This document shows, piece by piece, positions 2,620-32,000 of a stretch of 32,000 nucleotides of DNA. Under the pieces are notes generated by a model. The model saw only the letters and a list, made by a program, of their open reading frames with translations. It searched no databases and had not been told where the DNA came from. Both the position numbers and the translations under genes were made by a program. Within the stretch, counting starts at the first letter, position 1; every line of letters begins with the position of its first letter. This stretch comes from Clostridia bacterium (lineage in GTDB: Bacteria > Bacillota > Clostridia > Lachnospirales > CAG-274), in NCBI GenBank assembly GCA_030524425.1, contig JAUNGN010000017.1, positions 19,689-51,688 on the forward strand, given 5' to 3'.

Positions 2620-3057
2620 ATGACGCCAAGTGAAAAAAAATTTGCTGATGAATGGCTTATTGATTGCAATGGAACTAGAGCATATATGGCTGCATATCCT
2701 CGTATAAAAAACAGTAAATCTGCGGGTGTTTTAGCAAATAAGCTCTTAGCAAAAGCTAGTGTTCGACAGTACGTTGACGAAAAACTTGCAGAGCTCAGCT
2801 CTAAAAAGATTGCCAGCGCTGAAGAGGTTATGGAATACCTGACCGCCGTATTACGCGGAGAATCATCTGCGGAAATAGTTGTTGTTGAAGGCACAGGAGA
2901 CGGTTGCTCTGAGGCGAGAGCCTTACAGAAAAAGCCTGATGAAAAAGAAAAGCTTAAGGCCGCTGAGCTATTAGGTAAAAGGTACGGGCTTTATACCGAA
3001 AATGTATCGGTCAGCGGTGTTTCTAAGGTAATTATTGAGGATGATTTAAGTGAGTGA
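2620..3057 (+). CDS. terS: Terminase small subunit (Terminase_2-like)
   Basis: The N-terminus KFADEWLIDCNGTRAYMAAYPRIKNSKSAGVLANKLLAKASVRQYV matches the terminase small-subunit HTH pattern. The gene directly precedes and overlaps terL. Confidence 0.85.
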   Translation: MTPSEKKFADEWLIDCNGTRAYMAAYPRIKNSKSAGVLANKLLAKASVRQYVDEKLAELSSKKIASAEEVMEYLTAVLRGESSAEIVVVEGTGDGCSEARALQKKPDEKEKLKAAELLGKRYGLYTENVSVSGVSKVIIEDDLSE

Positions 3058-4291
3058 TACAAGAATTTCTCTTCAAAATATTGTAGGTAAGGGCTATAAA
3101 GAGTTTTGGAATTTTAAAGGCAGATATAGAGTATGTAAAGGTTCAAGAGCGTCAAAGAAAAGTAAGACAGCAGCATTAAACTGGATATTTAGAATTATGA
3201 AATATCCTCAGTCAAATCTTTTGGTAATAAGAAAAACATTCGCAACCTTAAAAGACAGTTGTTATACAGATTTAAAATGGGCTATTCACCGCTTTGGTGT
3301 GGATAGCCTTTTTGAGTGCAAGCTGTCACCTCTTGAAATAACATATAAGCCAACTGGACAAAAGATATTATTTAGAGGTCTTGACGACCCTTTAAAAATC
3401 ACTTCAATTACAGTAAGTGTAGGATGCCTATGCTGGTTATGGATTGAAGAAGCCTATGAAATTGACTCTGAAACAGATTTTAATATGCTGGATGAATCTA
3501 TAAGAGGTATAACACCAGAGGGATTGTTTAAGCAGATAACCCTTACCTTTAACCCTTGGAATGAGCATCACTGGCTTAAAAAGCGTTTCTTTGATGTTTA
3601 TGATGATAATATTCTCGCTATGACAACTAACTATACATGTAATGAATGGCTCGATGAATCAGACCTAAAATTATTTGAGGATATGAAGATAAGCAATCCT
3701 AGACGTTATCAGGTTGCAGGACTTGGCAACTGGGGTATAACCGATGGGCTTATATATGAAAATTTTGAAGAACGATTTTTTGATATAAATGAAGTACGAA
3801 ACAGTGGTACAAAAGCTGTATTCGGACTTGACTTTGGATATACAAATGACCCATCTGCCCTATTTTGCGGTGTAATCGATGCTGCAAATAAAGTGTTATA
3901 TGTATTTGATGAGATGTATGAGAAAGCTTTATCGAATGAGGCTATTGCTGAGAGAATAAGGTCAATGGGTTATGGCAAAGAAAAAATAACGGCTGACAGC
4001 TCCGAGCCTAAAAGTATTGACCGATTGCGAGAGCTTGGTATTTATCACATTAAGGGCGCAAGAAAAGGTAAAGACAGTATTAATAACGGTATTGACTTTA
4101 TTCAGGATTTTAAGATAATAATACACCCTAAATGTACGAATTTTATGAAAGAAATAACTAATTATCAATGGGATAGGGATAAAAGTGGCAGAAATATAAA
4201 TAAGCCTATAGATGACTTTAACCATTTGATGGACGCTATGAGGTATGCTATGGAGAACTTTATGGACGGTAATACCTTTAGTTTTGACTGA
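3050..4291 (+). CDS. terL: Terminase large subunit (PBSX/XtmB-like)
   Basis: The N-terminal pattern KGYKEFWNFKGRYRVCKGSRASKKSKT is a deviant Walker A, WIEEAYE is Walker B, and the C-terminus has an RNaseH-like nuclease (GLDFGYTNDPSA … DDFNHLMDAMRYA). GTG start. Confidence 0.93.
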   Translation: MSDTRISLQNIVGKGYKEFWNFKGRYRVCKGSRASKKSKTAALNWIFRIMKYPQSNLLVIRKTFATLKDSCYTDLKWAIHRFGVDSLFECKLSPLEITYKPTGQKILFRGLDDPLKITSITVSVGCLCWLWIEEAYEIDSETDFNMLDESIRGITPEGLFKQITLTFNPWNEHHWLKKRFFDVYDDNILAMTTNYTCNEWLDESDLKLFEDMKISNPRRYQVAGLGNWGITDGLIYENFEERFFDINEVRNSGTKAVFGLDFGYTNDPSALFCGVIDAANKVLYVFDEMYEKALSNEAIAERIRSMGYGKEKITADSSEPKSIDRLRELGIYHIKGARKGKDSINNGIDFIQDFKIIIHPKCTNFMKEITNYQWDRDKSGRNINKPIDDFNHLMDAMRYAMENFMDGNTFSFD

Positions 4292-5826: not shown

Positions 5827-7298
5827 TGAAAAGTAGTGAGTATTGGGCTAAAAGGTTTAAGGCTTTAGAGGAAAGGTCAAATGCGGAAGCACAAAAGTGT
5901 GCGGCTGAGTCGATGAAGCTTTTAGATGATGCTATTGTACAAATAGATAAGGACATTACATATTGGCTGAAACGATTTGCAGATAATAACGAAATGACCT
6001 TGGCAGAGGCAAAGAAGGCAATAACAAATAAAGAGCTTAAAGAACTTGGCTGGGATGTTGAGGAATATATAAGAAAAGGCTACGCCAATACCTATCTGGG
6101 CGATTGGAGCACTGAGCTTGAAAATGCAAGTGCCAAATACCATATAACAAGGCTTGACGCTATTAAATTTCAGATTCAGAAATTTTGTGATGAAGCATTT
6201 GCGGATATTGTTGACAGTATGTCAAAGAGCCTTTCAAACGTATATGAAGATGTTTATTATAGGACAGCCTTTGAGGTACAAAAAGGTATGGGAGTAGGAT
6301 TCAGCTTTGCACAGGTTGATGAAAACAAGCTAAAAATGATACTTGAAAGACCTTGGGCTGTTGACGGAGCTAATTTTTCCCAAAGAGTTTGGGGAACCTA
6401 CAGACCAAAGCTTACTAATAAACTTCAGCAGGCATTGACCGATTGGTGTGTAAGAGGTACAGACCCTAAAAGGCTTGCGAGAAAGCTAAGCTATGAAAGC
6501 GATGTAGCCCAATCAGCGTGCAATAGGCTTATACATACGGAGACATCTCAGATATGTACAAGAGCTGAAATGGATAGCTATGACGAATTAGGAGTTGAAA
6601 AGTATAGAATACTTGAAACATTAGACGGTAAGACCTGTGAGATATGCGGCGATATGGACAGTAAGATATTTAACCGAAATGATTTTGAGGTTGGTGTTAC
6701 AGCACCGCCCTTCCATCCAAGCTGCCGTGGAACTACAGTACCTGAAGTTGATGATGAGCTTTTGAAAAAAGGTAGAAAGCGAGCAGCCCGAGATGAAAAT
6801 GGTAAAACTGTTTATATTGATGATATGTCGTATAATGAATGGAAAGAAAAATTTGTTAGTAATGACCAGTTTACAAATCTAAGCAATAACGATATAATAA
6901 AATCAGGTAAAGAATTATATAGAAAAAATTCTAATTTAGGAGCTTTTTCAGGGCTTCCTGAAAGAATGAGTAAAAAGCATATTCGTGATATAGCTAATGA
7001 GTTTAATGTTGATATATCAGGGCTTAAGTTAAACATTGATGCTTCCGAAGAATTATTGAAATATGTAATTACAGGAGAAGCGGTTCCAGAAGAAATTGGG
7101 AAAATAACATTCTTTCCAAATGCGTTTAGAAGTAAAGAGGAATTGCTACGAACATTAGTCCACGAAAAAGAACACGTTCAGCAGTTTAAAGAATTTGGTG
7201 CAGAGTTTGTTCAAAATAATATGGCGCATTTTGAAAAGCTCGCCTATGAGAAAGAAAACTTATTTATTGAAAAAGCAAAAAAGGATGGACTTTTATGA
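5826..7298 (+). CDS. MuF/SPP1 gp7-family head morphogenesis protein with a ~180-aa C-terminal extension carrying an HExxH motif
   Basis: The MuF core includes LIHTETSQ… and GKTCEICGDMD…PPFHPSCRGTTVPEV (F296 at nt 6711). The extension runs aa ~310-490, with LVHEKEHVQQ at nt 7161-7175. Confidence 0.85.
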   Translation: MKSSEYWAKRFKALEERSNAEAQKCAAESMKLLDDAIVQIDKDITYWLKRFADNNEMTLAEAKKAITNKELKELGWDVEEYIRKGYANTYLGDWSTELENASAKYHITRLDAIKFQIQKFCDEAFADIVDSMSKSLSNVYEDVYYRTAFEVQKGMGVGFSFAQVDENKLKMILERPWAVDGANFSQRVWGTYRPKLTNKLQQALTDWCVRGTDPKRLARKLSYESDVAQSACNRLIHTETSQICTRAEMDSYDELGVEKYRILETLDGKTCEICGDMDSKIFNRNDFEVGVTAPPFHPSCRGTTVPEVDDELLKKGRKRAARDENGKTVYIDDMSYNEWKEKFVSNDQFTNLSNNDIIKSGKELYRKNSNLGAFSGLPERMSKKHIRDIANEFNVDISGLKLNIDASEELLKYVITGEAVPEEIGKITFFPNAFRSKEELLRTLVHEKEHVQQFKEFGAEFVQNNMAHFEKLAYEKENLFIEKAKKDGLL

Positions 7299-9495: not shown

Positions 9496-9718
9496 GTGTT
9501 CAATGAGAGTGAGAGTCAAATCTTACCCTTGTTTTTGGGGCTAACTCGTGAGGGAATAAAGCTGGGTCTCTGAATAGAGGTAGACGCATAGAGCGTTTAG
9601 AACTCCTTCGCTCCCGGGGTTAGCCTTTTATATTGCCCTGAATACGGCGTAAAAGTGTTCAAGCATTTTAACACAAGAGGTGAAACCTCGTAAAAAATCG
9701 TATTGGAGGAATGAAAAA

Positions 9719-13206: not shown

Positions 13207-14946
13207 ATGGCATTAGGCGGCGGTACATTTGTAACACAGAATAAAATATTACCCGGCAGCTACATTAACTTTGTATCAACTGCAAATGCAGGTCTTGTGT
13301 TTGGAGACAGAGGTGCTTGTGCGGCGCCTCTCAATCTTGATTGGGGTTCAGAAGGCGAAGTTATTGAAGTTACGGTTGAGGATTTTGAAAAAAATTCATT
13401 GAAGATTTTTGGCTATTCTTACACCGATGAAGAAATGAAGCCGTATAGGGATTTATTCAAAAATGCGCAGAAATGTTATTTTTACAGAGTAACAGGTGGC
13501 GTTAAGGCTTCTGCAACTCTCGGAATTGCAAAATGTGCAGGTACAAGGGGCAACAGTATTTTTTATACGGTAGCTAAGAATGCGGATAATGAAGCATTAT
13601 ATGATGTTTGTACATATATCAGAAGTATTGACAGCAGCATTGAGGCAAATAAGCTTTATGATTTTGAAAATACCAAAGCAATTTCTCCTGATATTATAAA
13701 TGTCGGCGGTAAAGCATCAATCACTCAAGACAATTCAGACCTGAGCAATCCTTATTATTGCGCTATTGACGGAGTAAGAGAAGGCACAGACCTTAATGAA
13801 AACGGCAAACCTATAAACCGAGCTTTATGCTTTGCCGGCATAACAGTACCTTGTAAAATTAAGGTTACATGCGCAAACGGCTCACAAAATTCTGTGAGAG
13901 TTTATTCAGATGGAACAGCCCCTTCAACTTTATCTCCGGCGATTGATGGAACAACTGCCGTATTTACAATTCCGGCAGGTGACGATGCGGCAAGAGATGT
14001 TTATGTATATGGCGCAGCAAAAATAAGAATGCTCAAAATTGAAATTGTATACGAAGGCGCAATAACTGATACTCTTGTGGATAAGCAGTCTGTTACATCA
14101 GCAAATAAGCTGAATAATAATGATTTTATTATTTGGGAGTCCAACGCAGCATTAGTAGAAACCGCTGGTACATTCTTAACAAATGGAACAACGACAGTAG
14201 CTACTGGAGCAACATATCAGAAGTTCCTTTCGGCTATTGAGAGTACACAGTTTAATACGCTGGTTTGCGACTCTACTACTGATACAATCAAGGCTCTTTT
14301 TGTGAGCTTTACAAAGAGACTTAGAGATACTGTGGGTGTTAAATTTCAGACAGTTGTGTACAAGTACGCCGGTGATTATGAGGGTTTAATCAATCTGACT
14401 ACTCCTGCTAAAGAAAATATTCCGGCTCTTGTATGGTGGGTAGCCGGAGCGGAAGCAAATTGCGCAATTAATAAAAGCTGTGCAAATAAAAAATATGATG
14501 GTGAGTATACACCAATTTGTACTGACACACAAGCGGGGCTTGAAAATGCAATAAACAATGGTGAATTAAAGTTCCATAAGGTAGGTTCTGATTATAGAGT
14601 TCTTACGGATATTAATTCCTTGGTTACAACAACATCCGAGAAAAGCAATTTATTCTGCTCTAATCAGACAATTAGAGTGTGTGACCAGATTGCTATGGAT
14701 ATAGCAACAATATTTAATACTCGTTACCTTGGTATAATGCCAAATGATAAAACGGGCAGAATTGCACTTGGGGCAGATATTGTAAAGTATATGAAAAATC
14801 TTGAGACTCTTAGAGCTATTGAGGATTTTACAGATACTGATGTTGTCGTTGAACAGGGCGAGGTAAAGCGTGCGGTTGTTGTTAATACACCTATTACTGT
14901 TGTAAATTGTATGGAACAGTTATATATGACTGTTAAGGTTAACTAA
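13207..14946 (+). CDS. Contractile tail sheath protein with an internal ~145-aa insertion
   Basis: The N-terminus MALGGGTFVTQNKILPGSYINF is the canonical sheath start. A conserved C-terminal half is also present. AAGGAGG RBS. Confidence 0.9.
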   Translation: MALGGGTFVTQNKILPGSYINFVSTANAGLVFGDRGACAAPLNLDWGSEGEVIEVTVEDFEKNSLKIFGYSYTDEEMKPYRDLFKNAQKCYFYRVTGGVKASATLGIAKCAGTRGNSIFYTVAKNADNEALYDVCTYIRSIDSSIEANKLYDFENTKAISPDIINVGGKASITQDNSDLSNPYYCAIDGVREGTDLNENGKPINRALCFAGITVPCKIKVTCANGSQNSVRVYSDGTAPSTLSPAIDGTTAVFTIPAGDDAARDVYVYGAAKIRMLKIEIVYEGAITDTLVDKQSVTSANKLNNNDFIIWESNAALVETAGTFLTNGTTTVATGATYQKFLSAIESTQFNTLVCDSTTDTIKALFVSFTKRLRDTVGVKFQTVVYKYAGDYEGLINLTTPAKENIPALVWWVAGAEANCAINKSCANKKYDGEYTPICTDTQAGLENAINNGELKFHKVGSDYRVLTDINSLVTTTSEKSNLFCSNQTIRVCDQIAMDIATIFNTRYLGIMPNDKTGRIALGADIVKYMKNLETLRAIEDFTDTDVVVEQGEVKRAVVVNTPITVVNCMEQLYMTVKVN

Positions 14947-14960
14947 GGAGGATATAGGCA

Positions 14961-15443
14961 ATGGCTACAAATATAACTATGAACGCAAGGGATGCTATAG
15001 CTGCAAAATTAGCTAAATGTTTTTTTACTATTAATGGAAATCGCTATAATTTTGCAAATATAATTGACCTTGAAGCAAAGCTTGAAAAGGATAAAGCAAC
15101 CGTGCCTCGCCTTGGCGCAATAATGAAAGGTCATAAGTCTTGTGGTATGGAAGGCACCTTCTCAGGCACAATGCACTATAATCAGTCTGTACTCAGAAAG
15201 CTTCTTGAAGATTATAAGAATACAGGGGAAGACGTTTATTTTGAAATACAGATTGAAAATGATGACCCTACGTCAGCAGCTGAAAGTCAGAGTGTAATAC
15301 TTTATGACTGTAACACTGATGGTGGTATTCTTGCTAAGTTTGATGCCGATGGCGAATATCTTGATGAAGAAATTGAGGGCACTTTTGAGGACTTTTCAAT
15401 TCCGGAAACATTTACAGAACTTGACGGTTTTTTAATGAGCTAA
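14961..15443 (+). CDS. Tail tube protein (XkdM-like)
   Basis: It follows the sheath gene, is 160 aa, and has the FFTINGNRYNFANIIDLEAKLEKDKATVPRLG pattern. Confidence 0.85.
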   Translation: MATNITMNARDAIAAKLAKCFFTINGNRYNFANIIDLEAKLEKDKATVPRLGAIMKGHKSCGMEGTFSGTMHYNQSVLRKLLEDYKNTGEDVYFEIQIENDDPTSAAESQSVILYDCNTDGGILAKFDADGEYLDEEIEGTFEDFSIPETFTELDGFLMS

Positions 15444-25940: not shown

Positions 25941-26129
25941 ATGAAGAAATGGTTTAAAGCGGCAGGAGTAAGAGCGGTAAAAACAATGGCGCAGACAGCA
26001 GTTGCTATGATTGGCACATCAGTTGCATTAAATGATGTAAATTGGACTATGACAGCATCTGCAACGGTACTAGCGGGAGTTTTGTCAATGCTTACATCTG
26101 TTGCGGGACTGCCTGAGTTAAAGGAGTGA
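25941..26129 (+). CDS. Holin
   Basis: A 62-aa protein with two hydrophobic segments. The pattern RAVKTMAQTAVAMIG is typical of small Firmicute phage holins. It overlaps the endolysin gene. Confidence 0.8.
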   Translation: MKKWFKAAGVRAVKTMAQTAVAMIGTSVALNDVNWTMTASATVLAGVLSMLTSVAGLPELKE

Positions 26130-26134
26130 TTTAT

Positions 26135-26977
26135 ATGAACATAATAGATGATTATTTGCCCGTCAATAAATATTCCCGTCCCGGTACGAAAATTAAGCCG
26201 ACAAAAATAGCCGTTCATTATGTAGGCAATGCAGGCAGCTCAGCAAAGGGTAACAGAAATTATTTTGCAAGTGGGAAGGTTTATGCCAGCTCACATTACA
26301 TAATCGGATTAAACGGAGAAATACTTAGATTAATTCCAGAGGATGAAATAAGTTATTGTACCAATCAGGCAAACAGCTATACAATATCTATTGAGTGTTG
26401 TCATCCGGATAACTCAGGTAAATTTAATACTGCAACTTTAAATTCCCTTATTGAATTGTGCACAGATATTTGTAAGCGCAGGAATTTCAGCCCTCTTAAG
26501 GATATTATAAGACATTACGATGTAACACAAAAAGCTTGCCCTTTATGGTGGGCTCCTAATGGACCTAATAAGAATGCAAATTCTGATTTTAATGCTTTTA
26601 AATCAGCTGTGGCTGAATTTATGGAATCCGGTAATAAAATAGTTAAGGCGGACATAGAAGTGATTACAGAGACAAATATAAAGATAAATGGCAAGGTCAT
26701 CAAAATAAACAGAATACTTAAAGATGATAAAAATTATATTGACCTCAGAGGTCTTGAGGCTGCTGGTTTCAAGGTTGGCTTCGATACAAATACAAAACTA
26801 TTGATTTTAAATAATAAAGTCTCAGAATTACCAATTAATGTTGACGGTAAGGAAACAAGTGTTGAGGCAATAAATATTGAGGGTAATAATTATGTGCCTA
26901 TCAGGAGTATTGCCTCTGCAACTGAGACTTTTGATGTGGGTTACATCAACGGTGATGTTGTTATTAATAAGAAATAA
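26135..26977 (+). CDS. Endolysin: N-acetylmuramoyl-L-alanine amidase (Amidase_2/PGRP) with a C-terminal copper-amine-oxidase-N-like wall-binding domain
   Basis: Amidase motifs: IAVHYVGNAG, SSHYIIG, SISIECCHPD, HYDVTQKACP. The C-terminal pattern IKINGKVI…NYIDLRGL…EGNNYVPIRSIA is also present. ATG 26135 lies 8 nt after AAGGAG. Confidence 0.92.
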   Translation: MNIIDDYLPVNKYSRPGTKIKPTKIAVHYVGNAGSSAKGNRNYFASGKVYASSHYIIGLNGEILRLIPEDEISYCTNQANSYTISIECCHPDNSGKFNTATLNSLIELCTDICKRRNFSPLKDIIRHYDVTQKACPLWWAPNGPNKNANSDFNAFKSAVAEFMESGNKIVKADIEVITETNIKINGKVIKINRILKDDKNYIDLRGLEAAGFKVGFDTNTKLLILNNKVSELPINVDGKETSVEAINIEGNNYVPIRSIASATETFDVGYINGDVVINKK

Positions 26978-26982
26978 TTTTT

Positions 26983-27010
26983 GAGGCGCTTCGGCGCCTC
27001 TTTTTTATTT
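26983..27010 (+). terminator. Strong rho-independent terminator ending the late operon
   Basis: GAGGCGC-ttcg-GCGCCTC followed by TTTTTTATTTT. Confidence 0.9.
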
Positions 27011-27037
27011 TGCTTGGTATTAAGCAATTATGCTTGC

Positions 27038-27116
27038 AAACTGCACAGAAATTGATTATAAACTCTGTGTGGAATATCAGTATACAAATTTAAGCGGCCA
27101 CGCTATAATTATTAAT
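27038..27116 (+). promoter_or_regulatory. Early promoter/operator repeat, copy A (diverged; closest to copy D)
   Basis: Perfect TATAAT at 27104-27109 and TATACA 17 bp upstream. The TTGCTT-N6-AAGCAA palindrome lies at 27010-27027, just upstream of this interval. The copy aligns with copy D (TGCACAG…AAACTCTGT…TTTAAGC…CACGCTATAAT). Confidence 0.65.
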
Positions 27117-27135
27117 GTAAATTATTTTAAGGGAG

Positions 27136-27330
27136 GTGGTAAACTTGGGCTTAAGGGAAAAACGACTTGAGAAGGGCTGGACACTTAAAGAACTTTCGGA
27201 GAGGTCTGGCGTACATTTAGTTAAAATTCAACAGATAGAAAGCGGAAAAATCAAAGCTGAGAATATGTCACTCAGAAATGCTGAAAAGCTTGCCAAAGCT
27301 TTAGGATGTCCGACTAGTGACCTTCTGTAA
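27136..27330 (+). CDS. XRE-family helix-turn-helix transcriptional regulator
   Basis: WTLKELSERSGVHLVKIQQIESGK is the classic HTH_3 motif. The true start may be TTG 27145, 8 nt after GGGAGG. Confidence 0.85.
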   Translation: MVNLGLREKRLEKGWTLKELSERSGVHLVKIQQIESGKIKAENMSLRNAEKLAKALGCPTSDLL

Positions 27331-27416
27331 AAATTGCATAGCAAAATTGCTTAAATTCCGTGTAAAACGTCGGCATACAAATGCCGAAAAACACGACATA
27401 ATAATATATGTAAGGT
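27331..27416 (+). promoter_or_regulatory. Early promoter/operator repeat, copy B
   Basis: Near-identical to copies E, F and G. It has TTGC-ata-GCAA-aa-TTGC, a CGGCAT-acaa-ATGCCG hairpin, CATAAT at 27397-27402, and GTAAG 8 nt downstream. Confidence 0.7.
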
Positions 27417-27476
27417 GCAAGTGAGTAATCGTTACAATTTCAGGCTGCTCACTTGATATGAAAGGAAGTGAGGACT

Positions 27477-27623
27477 ATGAAATTGCCAAATGCAACAGAA
27501 ATGATTGAAAAGCTTGCTAAAGAAAGTGCTATTAAGGATATTTACATAATGGCTCTCGAAGCAAAGCAAAATGGCCAAAGCTTTGATGATTTTATCAAAG
27601 AGCTTGAAGCCTTAAAGAAGTAA
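27477..27623 (+). CDS. Small protein (48 aa), paralogue of 31234-31386; below the ORF-track length cutoff
   Basis: It has a GGAAGTGAGGA RBS. It shares the blocks …AK…K(D/E)IYI.ALEA…G…(D/E)F(I/V)KELEAL with the other copy. Confidence 0.6.
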   Translation: MKLPNATEMIEKLAKESAIKDIYIMALEAKQNGQSFDDFIKELEALKK

Positions 27624-27669
27624 AAAAAGATAGCCGAGCTAGTGAAGTTCTTGTCGGCTATCTAAAACC

Positions 27670-27727
27670 AAAAAGCGAGCTCTGAGAGCGCAAACCTTAC
27701 TGCCCCTCAGTGTTCGCTTTTTATTAT
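27670..27727 (+). terminator. Extended hairpin plus U-tract; probable terminator of cassette 2
   Basis: An outer stem AAAAAGCGA/TCGCTTTTT and an inner stem CTGAG/CTCAG are followed by TTTTTATTAT. Confidence 0.5.
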
Positions 27728-27784
27728 ACCTCAAAATTGCCAATTTGTAAACTCTAATTTGAAATGTTTTATTGTAAGCCCTGC

Positions 27785-27864
27785 TCAGCAAAATTGCTTA
27801 AATTTCGTGTAAAACGTCGGCATACAGACGCTGAAAAACACGGCATAATAATGTATGTAAGGGC
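27785..27864 (+). promoter_or_regulatory. Early promoter/operator repeat, copy C (5'-truncated)
   Basis: AGCAAAATTGCTTAAATTTCGTGTAAAACGTCGGCATACAGACGCTGAAAAACACGGCATAATAATGTATGTAAG. Confidence 0.65.
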
Positions 27865-27891
27865 GAGTAAACATAAAGGAGATTTATACTA

Positions 27892-28170
27892 ATGAAATTT
27901 AAAATTTATGAACAACAAATATTTAATAACTCAAAAACATACTTATTAGCTGATTTTGGTTTTACATCAAATGATGAAAAAGCAAAACAAATATTTATAT
28001 CAACCATAAAATCTCAAAAAAATTTAATTGACTATATAAATACAAGAAAACTTAAAGAAAATATTGATATTACTTATATACTTTATAACTGTGATACAAA
28101 CAATATCATTTTAAAATTAATACCTACTTCTAATAATCTTATTAACTCTAAAACTGGTGAACTTATTTAA
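27892..28170 (+). CDS. Hypothetical protein (92 aa), extremely AT-rich
   Basis: It has an AAAGGAG RBS. By eye the G+C content is roughly one-fifth, well below the rest of the window. No family recognised. Confidence 0.55.
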   Translation: MKFKIYEQQIFNNSKTYLLADFGFTSNDEKAKQIFISTIKSQKNLIDYINTRKLKENIDITYILYNCDTNNIILKLIPTSNNLINSKTGELI

Positions 28171-28222
28171 TTATTACTCTTGCCCTTACTTATTCTAAAT
28201 TTAAAAAAGCTTAAGTCGTAAG

Positions 28223-28300
28223 AATTGCACAGCAAAGTTGCTAAAACTCTGTATGAAACGTCAGCATACGAGTTTAAGCAAACACGCTATAATAAATATA
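28223..28300 (+). promoter_or_regulatory. Early promoter/operator repeat, copy D (diverged)
   Basis: TTGC-aca-GCAA-ag-TTGC and a perfect TATAAT at 28288-28293. Confidence 0.65.
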
Positions 28301-28337
28301 TCAAATGAAACAAAACAACTTTTTACGGAGGTACATT

Positions 28338-29129
28338 ATGAAAAACTTAAATGAAATGACAGCTAAGGAGCTTAAGGAAATGGCTAAAGAGCTTAAGGTT
28401 GCAAACTGGTGGAATTTAAAGAAGTCTGAACTTATTTCTGGCATTGAGATGGCTTCCAATTCAGAAACCAATTCTGATAAAACTGACGAGAGTGAAGAAT
28501 TTGAGACTAATATTATAGAAGAAACAGTAAACGAGCCTATGAAGATGAGCGATACAATCACTATTTTAGAGGATATGTTTGACAAGCTTAACGCAATTTA
28601 TTTTGAAGATGCATTGCCTAAGCCTGTTATTACTGTGCAGTCTACACCTAAGGCATACGGTCATTGCTCAACTAAAAAAATTTGGAAGGCTGGTGACAAC
28701 GAGGCTATGTATGAGATTAACCTTGGTGCTGAGTTTATAAACAGACCTATTCAGGAAACTGCAGCAACCCTTACTCACGAGATGATACATCTTTATTGTA
28801 TTGTTAATGAGATTGCAGACACCTGCCAAAATGGCAGATACCACAATAAGACATTTAAGCTTGAGGCTGAAGCAAGAGACCTTGAGGCTGGGTATGACCG
28901 TGCAAATGGCTATACACATACAGCCCCAACTGAAACCTTTGTTAATAAGATTACTGAGGCTGGTATTAATATGACAATCAGATTTGCGCGCATTCTTAAA
29001 GCTCCTATAAAAAGAGAAAGAAACAAGCAATATAAATATGTTTGTCCTGTTTGCGGTCAGTATGTTAAGTCAGCATCTGAATTGCATATTAAATGCGCTA
29101 ATTGCGATGCGGAAATGATACGCAAATAA
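28338..29129 (+). CDS. SprT-like zinc metalloprotease with an N-terminal SAP/Rho-N-like motif and a C-terminal zinc ribbon
   Basis: LTHEMIHLYC is the HExxH motif and NGRYHNKTFKLEAE follows it. The N-terminus is AKELKEMAKELKVANWWNLKKSELISGIE. The C-terminus has CPVCG…CANCD. ATG 28338 follows GGAGG. Confidence 0.8.
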   Translation: MKNLNEMTAKELKEMAKELKVANWWNLKKSELISGIEMASNSETNSDKTDESEEFETNIIEETVNEPMKMSDTITILEDMFDKLNAIYFEDALPKPVITVQSTPKAYGHCSTKKIWKAGDNEAMYEINLGAEFINRPIQETAATLTHEMIHLYCIVNEIADTCQNGRYHNKTFKLEAEARDLEAGYDRANGYTHTAPTETFVNKITEAGINMTIRFARILKAPIKRERNKQYKYVCPVCGQYVKSASELHIKCANCDAEMIRK

Positions 29130-29130
29130 C

Positions 29131-29412
29131 TGAAGCACTTTGGGTAGCAGTTTAATTTTAATCTGCTGAACTGCTACCAAGCCAATCAGCAGTTACAGCA
29201 GTTTAAAACAAACTGCTTCAACAACTGCTTCAGCCGAAAGCCTTTTGTTTCCTAAGCAAATTAAGCTTTACAGCAGTTACAGCAGTTTTTTATCTATATA
29301 CTTTAAAAAGTAAGATTAAAGAGTAAATGCTTAATTTTACATTCTTTAATTGCTATTTTAAAAGTTTATAGGATTTTACTGCTGAACTGCTGAAACTGCT
29401 ACCAATATAAAA
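29131..29412. repeat. Iteron-rich block, copy 2 (281 bp)
   Basis: Same sequence as 159-431, with an extra GCTGAAACT-type 9-bp unit at ~29389-29397. It starts 1 nt after the SprT stop and ends at the RBS of the 29427 gene. Confidence 0.9.
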
Positions 29413-29426
29413 TGGGAGGTGAAATT

Positions 29427-29612
29427 ATGACGGATAAAATCAAAGAGCAAATTATTGCAATTAGAGAAAGTGGCTTGACAAATATGTTTGATATAAGGGA
29501 AGTTAAGAGGCTTGCAAAAGAAAGAAGATTTTTTGAGCTTATAGATTATATAGAAGATTATCAGGACCGATATGTTGCCTTTATATTCAATAGTAATAAG
29601 AATAAACCGTAA
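29427..29612 (+). CDS. Small DUF5049-like protein (61 aa)
   Basis: It has a GGGAGGTG RBS. The pattern IIAIRESGLTNMFDIREVKRLAKERRFFELIDYIE matches what I recall of the DUF5049 phage family. Confidence 0.6.
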   Translation: MTDKIKEQIIAIRESGLTNMFDIREVKRLAKERRFFELIDYIEDYQDRYVAFIFNSNKNKP

Positions 29613-29698
29613 AAATTGCATAGCAAAATTGCTTAAATTCCGTGTAAAACGTCGGCATACAAATGCCGAAAAACACGGCATAATAATATATGTAAGAT
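29612..29698 (+). promoter_or_regulatory. Early promoter/operator repeat, copy E
   Basis: Near-identical to copies B, F and G. It begins at the last base of the stop codon (29610-29612) of the preceding gene. Confidence 0.7.
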
Positions 29699-29735
29699 AC
29701 AAAAAAACACATACATTATTATGGAGGTAATTCAA

Positions 29736-30611
29736 ATGAAAAATCAGACTTTTGGAATTGAAATTGAGACAAGCGGTATTACAAGACAGAGAGCGGCTGA
29801 GCTTATTGCTAATTACTTTGGAACTGAAGCAAGCCATTATGGTGGAAGTTATGACAAGTATATAGCAAGAGATAATAAAGGACGTTACTGGGCTTGTGTA
29901 TTCGACTCATCAATTATTGCACAGTCACGTGCAACAAAATGCGAGGTCGTAAGCCCTATTCTTACTTATGATGATATTTCAGACCTTCAGGAGATAGTAA
30001 GAATATTAAGAAAAAATGGGGCTAAGTCAAGCCCAAGCAGGCAGTGTGGCATACATATTCATATTGGTCTTGGTAATCACAATATTAAGACTCTTAAAAA
30101 CTTAGTAAACTATATGAGTTCATATCAGGACCTTATTTACAAAGCTCTCAAAATTACAGATGAACGTCAAAGATGGTGCCAGAAACTAGAGTCTGTTTTG
30201 GTTGATAAGTTCAATGAAAGAGGTCTTGATACTTTTGAAAAGGGTGAAAGTGCTTGGTATGGCAAGGGCTGTGAGAGCGGTAAATACCAACACTACAACC
30301 CAACTCGATACCACGGTTTAAATCTTCATAGCGTATTTTCAAAGGGTACTATAGAATTTAGATTATTCAATGGTACACTTCATGCGGGCGAAATTAGAAG
30401 CTATGTTTGCTTTTGCTTGGCAATGAGTAATTTTGCTTTAGAAAAAAGGTCAATAAGGAGAGCCCATAAAAATCAATTCAATGATAAGTATACTATGTAT
30501 GAGATGCTTTGCAGAATAGGTATTAAGGGAGAGGAATTTAAGGTTGTAAGGGACCATCTTACTAAACATCTTTCAGGAAGCCTTACTCATGAAGGTAGAT
30601 ACATAATATAG
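29736..30611 (+). CDS. Amidoligase_2-family COOH-NH2 ligase (glutamine-synthetase/GCS2-like fold)
   Basis: Four blocks are characteristic of the 'putative amidoligase enzyme' family: FGIEIETSG, CGIHIHIGLG, RYHGLNLH and TIEFRLFNGTLH. ATG 29736 follows GGAGG. Confidence 0.85.
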   Translation: MKNQTFGIEIETSGITRQRAAELIANYFGTEASHYGGSYDKYIARDNKGRYWACVFDSSIIAQSRATKCEVVSPILTYDDISDLQEIVRILRKNGAKSSPSRQCGIHIHIGLGNHNIKTLKNLVNYMSSYQDLIYKALKITDERQRWCQKLESVLVDKFNERGLDTFEKGESAWYGKGCESGKYQHYNPTRYHGLNLHSVFSKGTIEFRLFNGTLHAGEIRSYVCFCLAMSNFALEKRSIRRAHKNQFNDKYTMYEMLCRIGIKGEEFKVVRDHLTKHLSGSLTHEGRYII

Positions 30612-30663
30612 AGTTAATGAGAGCTTGCAGTTTTGCAAGCTCTCAAAAAAAGAGGTGTAAGTT

Positions 30664-31110
30664 ATGAAATTATATATTGCTTATGGCAGTAACTTAAATT
30701 TAGGACAAATGGAACGCAGATGCCCCGGCGCAAAAGTTTTATATAAAGGAATTGTTAAAGATTACTCACTTGTATATCGTGGCTCAAAAACCGGCGCTTA
30801 TGCTACTATCGTTCCCCAAAAAGGTGATTTTGTTCCTGTCGCAGTGTGGGAAATAAATTCTGTACACGAGCGCAGACTTGACATCTATGAAGGCTATCCC
30901 AACTTTTATTATAAAAAAGAACTACCGGTTATATTAGATGATAATAGCCGGATTTGGGGAATGGCTTATATTATGTTTGATGGCGCAAAAACTGGGCGAC
31001 CGTCAGAGGAATATCTAAGGACTTGTTTGAGAGGCTACCTTGATAACGGACTTAATATAAACAAATTTGAAAACTCAATTAAGAATAATGAGAAAGAGCT
31101 GTTGCGGTAA
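30664..31110 (+). CDS. Gamma-glutamyl cyclotransferase-like protein (GGCT/AIG2 fold)
   Basis: It has the N-terminal YGSNLN motif, a catalytic-Glu context DIYEGYP, and a size of ~150 aa. Confidence 0.85.
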   Translation: MKLYIAYGSNLNLGQMERRCPGAKVLYKGIVKDYSLVYRGSKTGAYATIVPQKGDFVPVAVWEINSVHERRLDIYEGYPNFYYKKELPVILDDNSRIWGMAYIMFDGAKTGRPSEEYLRTCLRGYLDNGLNINKFENSIKNNEKELLR

Positions 31111-31196
31111 AAATTGCATAGCAAAATTGCTTAAATTCCGTGTAAAACGTCAGCATACAAATGCAGAAAAACACGGCATAATAATATATGTAAGAC
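31111..31196 (+). promoter_or_regulatory. Early promoter/operator repeat, copy F
   Basis: Near-identical to copies B, E and G. It begins immediately after the GGCT stop codon (31108-31110). Confidence 0.7.
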
Positions 31197-31233
31197 ACAA
31201 GTAAACAACTTGTTTTGAAAGGAAGTGAGGATG

Positions 31234-31386
31234 ATGAAAGAAATGACGCCAACAGAAATTGCTGTTGAGTATGCCAAGGCTGATTTGAAAAAAGAGATTT
31301 ACATAAAAGCTCTTGAGGCTCAAAAAGCCGGCAAAACTCTTCAAGAGTTTGTTAAAGAGCTTGAAGCCTTGGCAACCAGCAAATAA
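31234..31386 (+). CDS. Small protein (50 aa), paralogue of 27477-27623
   Basis: It has the same RBS context (GGAAGTGAGGATG-ATG) and a conserved EIYIKALEA…EFVKELEAL core. It is not in the ORF track because it is too short. Confidence 0.6.
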   Translation: MKEMTPTEIAVEYAKADLKKEIYIKALEAQKAGKTLQEFVKELEALATSK

Positions 31387-31590
31387 AAATAAGATAGCTG
31401 CTCTTGATTACCCAGTCAACCAGCTATCTTAAAGAAACCACACAGCCTTGAGAATGCGAGTCTTACCGTTTCTCTTGGTTGTATGGATTCATTATAACGT
31501 AAAACAATGAAAATGTAAATAGTTTTTTAGGAAGAAAAAATGAAAACAAAAAAAGGAGAGTATTGCATTCGGAGATGATAAGAGCTTGTA

Positions 31591-31677
31591 AGAACTGCAT
31601 AGCAAAATTGCTTAAATTCCGTGTAAAACGTCGGCATACAAATGCAGAAAAACACGGCATAATAATATATGTAAGAT
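31591..31677 (+). promoter_or_regulatory. Early promoter/operator repeat, copy G
   Basis: Near-identical to copies B, E and F. Confidence 0.7.
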
Positions 31678-31710
31678 ACAAAAACACATATTATTAAGGA
31701 GGTACATAAG

Positions 31711-31986
31711 ATGAAAGTTTGGTTTGGCGGTGAATTTAAAAATATTGAAATTGGACAAAAGGTCTTTGTAGGTCATGCAGGTTCTGGACATAGCTGTTTT
31801 GGTGAATACGGAAAGCTTGAGCGCACAACTGTTAAACACCTTGTATTTAGAACTGAGTCCGGTGCAATAATTAAAACGGCAATTGGTAACCTTCATCAGG
31901 TTGTTGGCAAAGCTGGCAAGCAGGGTAATTTTGTAAGCTTATTAATTGAGAGAGAATTTATATATAGCCCGTTGAAGATTTATTAA
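31711..31986 (+). CDS. Hypothetical protein (91 aa)
   Basis: It has an AAGGAGG RBS and follows promoter repeat G. No family recognised. Confidence 0.55.
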   Translation: MKVWFGGEFKNIEIGQKVFVGHAGSGHSCFGEYGKLERTTVKHLVFRTESGAIIKTAIGNLHQVVGKAGKQGNFVSLLIEREFIYSPLKIY

Positions 31987-32000
31987 ATAAAAAAGTGTGT

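Follow-up and report, generated by a model that had tools for sequence, protein, structure and literature searches.

Unit array downstream of the lysis genes

The 32,000-nt stretch of the Clostridia bacterium contig JAUNGN010000017.1 analysed here (the window) belongs to a phage or prophage that reads on one strand, and it carries, past the lysis genes, an array of similar DNA units that each precede a gene. The window opens with the end of a VirE-type primase gene, followed by the genes for VRR-NUC, a SNF2 helicase, a DUF1492 regulator and the small and large terminase subunits (TerS, TerL), and continues with SPP1-type portal, head, tail and baseplate genes, a holin gene and the gene of an Amidase_2 endolysin (Table 1). 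The array begins directly past the endolysin terminator, a predicted intrinsic terminator that separates the unit region from the late/lysis operon.

Repeat families and alignment gave seven direct, co-oriented copies of the unit within 4.7 kb, the number counted in a sequence-only reading of the same DNA. A profile built from the units (nhmmer) matched the window at these seven places only (E values of 1.6e-13 to 5e-24) and had no match in its other 27 kb. The core motif CGTCRGCATAC occurred exactly six times in the window, always on the + strand and always within a unit; with up to one mismatch there were seven matches, compared to 0.33 expected, and none of 100 shuffles reached seven. The most diverged copy, unit A, has a degenerate core that reads ATCAGTATAC. 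A further repeat match (60%) at 6849-6903 was rejected as a chance match, as it lies inside a minor head protein gene and was missed by the profile.

Units B, E, F and G were 95-99% alike, as their description as almost identical had implied, and their likeness to the other copies was 86-89% for C, 68-77% for D and 52-65% for A. The length had been put at about 85 bp; the units measure about 95-100 nt, with a 5' edge that takes in a GTAA giving a stop codon. This (T)GTAA edge is also found in copies C, D and G, where no open reading frame (ORF) ends, so that B, E and F have one identical junction. Their direct abutment on stop codons, taken earlier as the junction that recombination would leave, is not in itself a scar, the stop-supplying GTAA being part of the unit. 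A ribosome-binding site (RBS) and a gene do follow each copy, but not a different gene each time as had been stated, since B and F lead paralogous genes (48-51 aa). The likely gene starts are at 27145 (TTG, XRE gene), 27477, 27892, 28338, 29736, 31231/31234 and 31711, which for units B to G is 43-75 nt past the −10.

Table 1 Units, genes and other features of the array region, in window coordinates.
Feature	Position	Strand	Details
Endolysin (Amidase_2)	26126-26977	+	Pfam
Intrinsic terminator 3' of the endolysin gene (predicted)	26983-27010	+	GAGGCGCTTCGGCGCCTC, then T-run
Unit A, most diverged	27034-27130	+	−35-like TATACA 27081-27086; −10 TATAAT 27104-27109; E 1.6e-13; 5' of XRE gene
XRE/Cro-like helix-turn-helix protein, 61 aa from TTG 27145	27145-27330	+	Pfam HTH_3 6.9e-12; stop in 5' edge of unit B
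Unit B	27324-27424	+	Core CGTCGGCATAC 27368-27378; −10 CATAAT 27397-27402
48-aa hydrophilic helical protein, cassette B body	27477-27623	+	Paralogue of 31231-31386 gene (73%)
Convergent small-RNA gene, part of cassette B (predicted)	27622-27751	-	Promoter TTTACA-17-TATAAT 27751->27723; predicted transcript ~27716->27622
Unit C	27771-27867	+	Core 27815-27825; −10 CATAAT 27844-27849; E/F/G-type body
92-aa protein, cassette C	27892-28170	+	No family match
Unit D, ancestral-looking form (…AAGCAAACACGCTATAATAAATATATCAAATGAAACA)	28216-28315	+	Core CGTCAGCATAC 28259-28269; −10 TATAAT 28288-28293
SprT-like zinc metalloprotease with N-terminal Rho_N/HeH domain	28338-29129	+	Pfam
DUF5049 protein	29412-29612	+	Pfam; stop in 5' edge of unit E
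Unit E	29607-29704	+	Core 29650-29660; −10 CATAAT 29679-29684; inferred start ~29690-29692
Amidoligase, cassette E	29736-30611	+	Pfam Amidoligase_2 4.5e-59; PHROGs
Gamma-glutamyl cyclotransferase-like protein, cassette E	30664-31110	+	Pfam GGACT 4.6e-12; PHROGs; stop in 5' edge of unit F
Unit F	31105-31204	+	Core CGTCAGCATAC 31148-31158; −10 CATAAT 31177-31182
50/51-aa paralogue of 27477-27623 gene, cassette F	31231-31386	+	Repeat comparison
Second convergent small-RNA gene copy (predicted)	31386-31519	-	Promoter 31519->31491; predicted transcript ~31484->31386
Unit G	31586-31684	+	Core 31629-31639; −10 CATAAT 31658-31663
91-aa protein, cassette G	31711-31986	+	ORF

Distribution of the unit and its place in related phages

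Overall, the profile gave 186 matches in about 45 loci, the window included, and a separate scan of Dulem virus 37 (PP511443.1; L100), which had been found by protein search, gave six more. Pattern scans identified the unit in a Eubacteriaceae metagenome-assembled genome (L001) and in a 131-kb metagenome contig (L003); about 25 IMG/VR contigs were recovered by pattern scans and protein-anchored searches, and unit-bearing prophage contigs from ENA and Logan were reached via XRE homologues. The first long degenerate pattern had returned no match in viral and metagenome contigs and one in genomes, and only L003 was real among 22 metagenome loci found with a 19-nt core pattern. Neither megablast nor blastn against GenBank phages gave a real match for the region or for unit D. 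The collection scan behind many of the relatives accepted a locus only if one or more of its units had both CGTCRGCATAC and AMRCGNYAWAAT. A search for sequencing runs gave none for the window and, for L003, four possible RNA runs from wastewater, whose few short contigs carried no 5'-end information.

Strong matches had the same orientation within each locus, except in L077, with one on each strand. In the relatives, an RBS and an ORF (30 aa or longer) lay 3' of 108 units, the ORF starting at a median of 49 nt past the −10 (interquartile range 44-58). Together with the conserved −10 and the co-orientation with the genes, this supports the idea of a portable promoter module. At least 29 different gene families occupied the slot after a unit in the relatives, which add DUF3846, DUF6273, DUF2786/DUF7168 and DUF7666 genes as well as, in Dulem virus 37, a methyltransferase and Lar. 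The most widespread genes of the region were SprT (29 loci) and XRE (24 loci), and SprT was also the most widespread gene directly 3' of a unit (17 loci).

The unit region had been regarded as part of the early region, a label that is doubtful because prophage relatives and Dulem virus 37 have the units in the interval from the lysis genes to the attachment site or integrase. In L101-L104 the region is flanked by the endolysin gene on one side and host chromosomal genes on the other, and in L058, the closest relative of the window, it ends at a transfer-messenger RNA (tmRNA) gene (14630-14978, - strand), a sign of integration at ssrA and the boundary of the prophage. Dulem virus 37, whose genome is complete and circular, has every unit match inside positions 29.3-33.9 kb of its record; there, the lysis genes are followed by units with SprT, methyltransferase, XRE and Lar genes, next by an integrase and a repressor on the opposite strand, and after these by Cro-like and replication genes, VirE, VRR-NUC, SNF2, DUF1492 and terminase. 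In L061 and L062, the unit module is placed after the integrase/repressor/Cro block instead. Within the window, no integrase lies next to the array. The unit region thus appears to be a post-lysis accessory arm adjoining the attachment site, and not demonstrably an early lytic operon.

Sequence conservation within the unit

Conservation was assessed on 59 non-redundant units, filtered to <88% identity. Information peaked in four blocks, whose positions are given relative to the inferred start: the core CGTCGGCATAC (about −41 to −31), AAACACG followed by TAAAAT, TATAAT or CATAAT (−20 to −7), AAA-TCCGTG (about −53 to −44) and tGCAyAG-AAA (about −75 to −62). Around the core, the consensus forms an imperfect 18-bp dyad, TTTCGT-CGGCAT-ACGAAA, which is centred near −35.5 and has symmetric information in its arms, and a further TCCGT (a yCGT half-site) lies one helical turn upstream of it. 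The −10 consensus is TAWAAT, preceded by a conserved G at −14 inside AAACACGn. At the −35 position the window units read CATACA or CATACG, and a passable −35 (TATACA-17-TATAAT) is found in unit A alone. As a simple consensus sigma-70 scan lists unit A only, use of the other copies by sigma-A is read from the −10 alone. The conserved sequence, which includes a dyad at the −35 position, is far more than a housekeeping promoter needs, as the sequence-only reading had argued, and makes a dedicated DNA-binding factor a reasonable expectation.

Some lineages retain the −10 amid altered surroundings. In L001 the −10 is kept and TGnTATAAT replaces ACACGG. A variant-core class comprises all three units of L026 (1788-1880, 2497-2589 and 5720-5812), two of the four units of Dulem virus 37 (9568-9698 and 14023-14150) and one at ~775 in L086; here the upstream block and the AACACGGTAAAAT end are kept, and the core CGTCGGCATAC is replaced by (T)GCGCGCTCCC or GTCGGCTCCC. 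The presence of both core classes in Dulem virus 37 suggests that two promoter classes on one scaffold may be regulated separately.

In L065, a divergent promoter reuses CTTACTAAACGCGGTAAAAT behind a good −35 (TTTACA, 17 bp, TAAAAT), which indicates that this block works as a −10/spacer region. The promoter (2940-3140) stands back-to-back with the first unit and is a short reverse copy of the −10 block, and divergent promoters were found at the same place in other GC-rich relatives (L066, L067, L069, L073, L081, L083, L085, L091, L093 and L095-L097), where they precede a minus-strand gene of 62-167 aa that is predicted to be, possibly, a repressor. An inverted copy of the core (GTATGCCGACGAAA) was observed ~45 nt upstream of the normal core in L082 (~4400 and ~5590) and L088 (~4915), an arrangement that would suit looping or dimer-of-dimers binding.

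Gain, loss and exchange of cassettes

Comparison of the slots between relatives bore out the proposal that the cassettes are exchangeable, as cassette content and order differ and the junctions lie at the units. The window and L058 are colinear at ~80% identity except for 27317-27766 (unit B, the 48-aa gene and the small-RNA gene), which is absent from L058. L003 and L101 are without the C cassette and the DUF5049-amidoligase-GGACT block. The G cassette (unit and 91-aa gene; 31586-31968) matches L042 7181-7562 at 71%, where it is found directly after XRE and upstream of SprT rather than downstream. Within the window, cassette B duplicates cassette F in diverged form, with bodies ~73% alike and units 96% alike.

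A unit can also change independently of its gene. The orthologue of the 92-aa gene in L058 and L059 is 89% identical at the DNA level, whereas its unit is of another class, with 68% identity to unit C. Unit C itself is of the E/F/G type (87-89%), its body is joined to the 5' untranslated region of the 92-aa gene, and the similarity between the window and L058 resumes just past the −10. The unit before the 92-aa gene has, on this alignment, been replaced by one of another class through a crossover between −10 and RBS. Otherwise, units from the same slot group together (classes A, D, C/B' and E/F), which shows that within-genome homogenisation is partial. Some indels have no unit at their borders, as is the case for the DUF7666 indel that distinguishes L101 from L103.

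The XRE protein as candidate regulator

The XRE protein encoded by the first cassette, which had been named as the obvious candidate for the DNA-binding factor, is the leading candidate for a regulator of the units on the comparative evidence. An orthologue (48-91% identical) was found in every well-covered unit-bearing phage, and the more distant XRE homologues (L043-L057) had no units nearby. Its best PDB match was the controller protein C.BclI, a weak match (E 1e-3). In L026, where all three units are of the variant-core class, the XRE recognition helix reads IRYQKIRD compared to VHLVKIQQ or VNYMKIHQ elsewhere; this covariation of XRE and core comes from one informative lineage only, while Dulem virus 37 has both cores. 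A short palindrome was also observed 5' of the first unit only (27011-27045, AAGCA-ATTA-TGCTT), with equivalents 5' of the A-type units in L058 (TAGCG-AATA-CGCTA), L003 and L061, and may be a separate operator for the XRE promoter.

Proposed promoter function and alternative explanations

We consider it fairly probable that the unit is a sigma-A promoter with an operator for a phage helix-turn-helix regulator and, in addition, a stretch of portable homology for cassette exchange. Its role is most likely a double one, as a co-regulated promoter and as a seam for cassette swapping. In this temperate phage of Clostridia, which has a contractile tail, each unit would be a self-contained promoter-operator module at the head of a short transcription unit of the accessory arm. 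The host sigma-A RNA polymerase would use the conserved −10 and start ~7 nt downstream of it, leaving 40-70 nt up to the RBS of the cassette gene, with the core CGTCRGCATAC standing, within the 18-bp dyad, in place of TTGACA at the −35 hexamer; the A-rich GCAYAGCAAA block at −75 to −45 may serve as an UP-like element. A dimeric or oligomeric helix-turn-helix regulator would set the activity of all units together and, should this be the small XRE/Cro/controller-like protein, it would autoregulate its synthesis from unit A. The centring of the site on −35 speaks for repression, and an alternative is activation of a promoter that lacks a −35, as restriction-modification (R-M) controller proteins do. 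Whole cassettes, each a unit with its gene or genes, would be gained, lost, duplicated and re-ordered, each bringing its own regulated promoter; because the units are ~95 nt long, near-identical and in direct orientation, they would be substrates for homologous recombination and gene conversion. Promoter activity, binding of a factor, the identity of that factor and the timing of expression are what we infer here from DNA comparison, which itself demonstrates the repeats, how they are conserved, where genes lie relative to them, the differences in cassettes and one exchange of a unit.

Several observations weigh against a regulated sigma-A promoter of this kind. The −35 is poor in all copies but A, with 2-3 of 6 matches to TTGACA. 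At the centre of the dyad, six bases (CGGCAT) are invariant despite their lack of symmetry, a pattern that a simple dimer model leaves unexplained. The invariance of the core is partly a matter of ascertainment, as the collection scan picked up a locus only when one or more of its units had the core; the remaining units of pattern-found loci, recovered by the profile, keep the core too. Conservation of orthologous units does not consistently exceed that of coding DNA (66% for A and 68% for C vs 57-89% for coding sequences). As for the regulator, the co-occurrence of XRE and units is confounded by shared ancestry, since close relatives have most genes in common, and Dulem virus 37 has both core types but one XRE orthologue seen in the accessory arm, so that XRE cannot explain both classes.

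The units might alternatively be plain constitutive sigma-A promoters whose likeness stems only from recent duplication and gene conversion, with no dedicated factor. Homogenisation would fit the 95-99% likeness of B, E, F and G next to B and F cassette bodies that are only ~73% alike, and some orthologous units (A and C) are indeed less conserved than neighbouring genes. We nevertheless hold this to be improbable, as the same blocks are kept in the 59 non-redundant units across phages of very different base composition, and as the conservation is concentrated in blocks (core, AAACACG, −10, phased half-sites) instead of being uniform. Moreover, the core occupies the −35 place yet is unlike a −35, and two alternative cores are found on one scaffold.

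It is likewise rather unlikely that the units are promoters of an alternative or phage-directed sigma factor, or of a sigma-appropriating activator, with GTCRGCATAC as a −35-type element and a temporal class independent of sigma-A. This would account for the almost invariant, non-canonical −35 region. In Bacillus subtilis, the sigma-G consensus is GHATR / CATXHTA, and the derived copies of the unit, with GCATA-N19-CATAATA, are reminiscent of such forespore-type promoters; however, CATAATA is limited to one lineage, most units have TAAAAT, TATAAT or TAATAT, and the spacing is 19 instead of 17-18. A phage-encoded candidate for such a factor exists in the DUF1492 / PHROG 36 transcriptional regulator (2074-2535), which is sigma region 4-like, but its gene lies just 5' of the small terminase gene, like those of known late activators, with no unit or core site near it, and its product is probably the late-gene activator. 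The divergent promoter of L065, in addition, couples the same −10 block to a canonical TTTACA −35. Sigma-54 and extracytoplasmic function (ECF) sigma promoters, the CcpA cre site and the Spo0A box were also rejected, as spacing or key bases did not fit (compared by eye with consensus sequences).

Each copy had been described as carrying a CGGCAT-ACAA-ATGCCG hairpin and interlocked TTGC-N3-GCAA-N2-TTGC half-sites. The hairpin turned out to be perfect in B and E only; F and G have a single mismatch, C has more than one, and A and D lack the hairpin. Both features are confined to the lineage of the window and show no compensatory change. RNAalifold found 0 consensus pairs in 33 diverse units, the two named helices were paired in 64% of cells compared to 63.6% in shuffles, the inner helix showed no compensatory change, and an Rfam scan of 26900-32000 gave sub-threshold chance matches only. 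A hairpin or long-range stem was thus ruled out as a conserved structure, and the lack of a conserved fold or of covariation in these comparisons implies that the unit works as double-stranded DNA. It is, accordingly, very improbable that the unit is an RNA processing or antitermination element, or a single-stranded DNA hairpin that acts as promoter or recombination site in the manner of integron attC or plasmid Frpo: the 6-bp hairpin of B and E, nested in a CCGTGT…ACACGG stem, and the abutment on stop codons, which a structural role would explain, are set against the folding results, the lack of a T-run after that hairpin, the absence of a tyrosine recombinase adjoining the array and units without terminal inverted repeats or target duplications.

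Relation to known repeated promoter and operator systems

The functionally closest known system to a regulated, recombining promoter unit is, judging from sequence and arrangement, that of the promoter-early stem-loops (PeSLs) of T4-type phages (Arbiol et al. 2010, PMC2839356; Comeau et al. 2014, PMC4122927), although the units are not members of the PeSL family. PeSLs bear promoters and occur in many copies in a plastic region rich in small orphan genes, preferentially upstream of these, and in relatives the cassettes flanked by the motif are inserted, deleted or replaced, with mini-circle crossovers between the −10 and the Shine-Dalgarno sequence (PMC2839356, PMC4122927). The units resemble them in span, repetition and position ahead of orphan genes, and in having cassette indels whose crossovers fall within the motif; the B-cassette indel, the unit C swap and the moved G cassette are the counterparts here. 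They differ in that PeSLs have strong consensus sigma-70 −35 and −10 elements and a G/C-rich terminating stem-loop, whereas the units have a conserved non-consensus dyad at −35 and a hairpin that is not conserved and has no T-run. The units also belong to a temperate Clostridia phage of an unrelated lineage, and there is no sequence similarity.

The stoperators of Cluster A mycobacteriophages (PMC6550527, PMC9283540) are asymmetric sites of 13-14 bp, bound by the phage immunity repressor, that are distributed genome-wide, mostly without a promoter, and block elongation. The units are similar in being many oriented copies of a short conserved site, often by stop codons, through which one regulator could control many transcription units; their 11-nt core is, in contrast, embedded at the −35 of a 95-nt promoter unit and confined to one arm.

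Families of highly similar promoters with non-canonical −35 regions and a repeated dyad are a further parallel, although lineage, sequence and genomic location differ in the case we compared. In the Streptomyces phage phiC31, near-identical early promoters with non-canonical −35 regions and a repeated dyad bound by the phage repressor are under synchronous control; to our knowledge, no cassette-shuffling role has been described for them. Controller (C) proteins of R-M systems are, similar to the XRE protein, small single-domain XRE-type helix-turn-helix proteins (C.BclI being its best, if weak, PDB match) and act on dyads that overlap a poor −35, where they can activate and repress. In a C-box circuit, dyad operators precede the C-protein gene and a restriction endonuclease gene follows it; the units, however, have no R-M genes next to them in the window or downstream of XRE, and one operator would serve many promoters and not one operon. 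Lambdoid morons are autonomous promoter-gene(-terminator) modules in accessory positions with no common flanking sequence; cassettes B and F are nearly as self-contained, but a common unit supplies them with regulation and homology. Integron cassettes are promoterless, each followed by an imperfect inverted-repeat recombination site (attC), with an IntI integrase adjacent. The units, in contrast, are without a conserved fold, carry promoters and have no integrase next to the array in the window.

Overall, the units are widespread in uncultured gut Clostridia phages and solidly real, but nothing unprecedented in kind. More tentatively, and with some doubt, the units and XRE might together form a self-contained portable regulon, a homologous-recombination counterpart of the integron that provides each newly arrived cassette with a regulated promoter, whose interchangeable cores (CGTCGGCATAC/GCGCGCTCCC) on a single scaffold would mark promoter classes under separate control and which governs an accessory, possibly anti-defence island in a broad uncultured gut Clostridia phage group. 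The island genes include the SprT-like protease, the amidoligase and GGACT proteins, DUF3846, DUF2786 and DUF6273, with Lar and methyltransferase in relatives. If the proposed double role is correct, one unit would explain both the expression of the accessory arm and its variability in widespread uncultured gut Clostridia phages. Modular shuffling of the PeSL type would then reach beyond virulent T4-like phages and their Gram-negative hosts to temperate Firmicutes phages, with a common sequence built around a regulator site and not around a consensus promoter and terminator. The unit profile is of practical use in delimiting cassettes and in picking out accessory genes in metagenomic phage contigs, and the invariant core is a direct handle on a regulator-operator pair.

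Further features of the window and its relatives

A predicted small-RNA gene is convergent with each of the 48-51-aa genes and is conserved in the window, L003, L058, L059 and L061. Its promoter is near consensus (TTTACA-17-TATAAT, 11/12), and the predicted RNA has a 5' stem-loop with an invariant GUAAG loop; its intrinsic terminator, made up of AAGATAGC…GCTATCTT and a T-run, directly adjoins the stop codon of the protein gene. Compensatory changes were found in 10 of the 25 predicted pairs across six loci, and there was no Rfam match. In layout, this resembles type I toxin-antitoxin pairs of the convergent kind, except that the small protein here is hydrophilic.

In Dulem virus 37, a diversity-generating retroelement (Avd and reverse transcriptase; 4597-6470 of L100) lies between the tail-fibre region and the lysis genes. 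No ORFs of Avd or reverse-transcriptase size were found between the tail and lysis genes in the ORF list of the window, in which those ORFs stand without a family search.

The window also holds an exact 261-nt direct repeat (159-419 and 29131-29391), with the copies 28,972 nt apart, one 5' of the VRR-NUC gene and the other 5' of the DUF5049 gene. The repeat is full of CAGCAGTT / AACTGCT motifs, which occur 12 times in the window compared to 1.1 expected, 9 of the 12 being inside the two copies; these could be iterons, an origin or a common regulatory region. The IMG/VR contigs L024 and L025, which represent one relative, terminate at the place equivalent to this repeat, and the 100% identity of its two copies suggests recent conversion.

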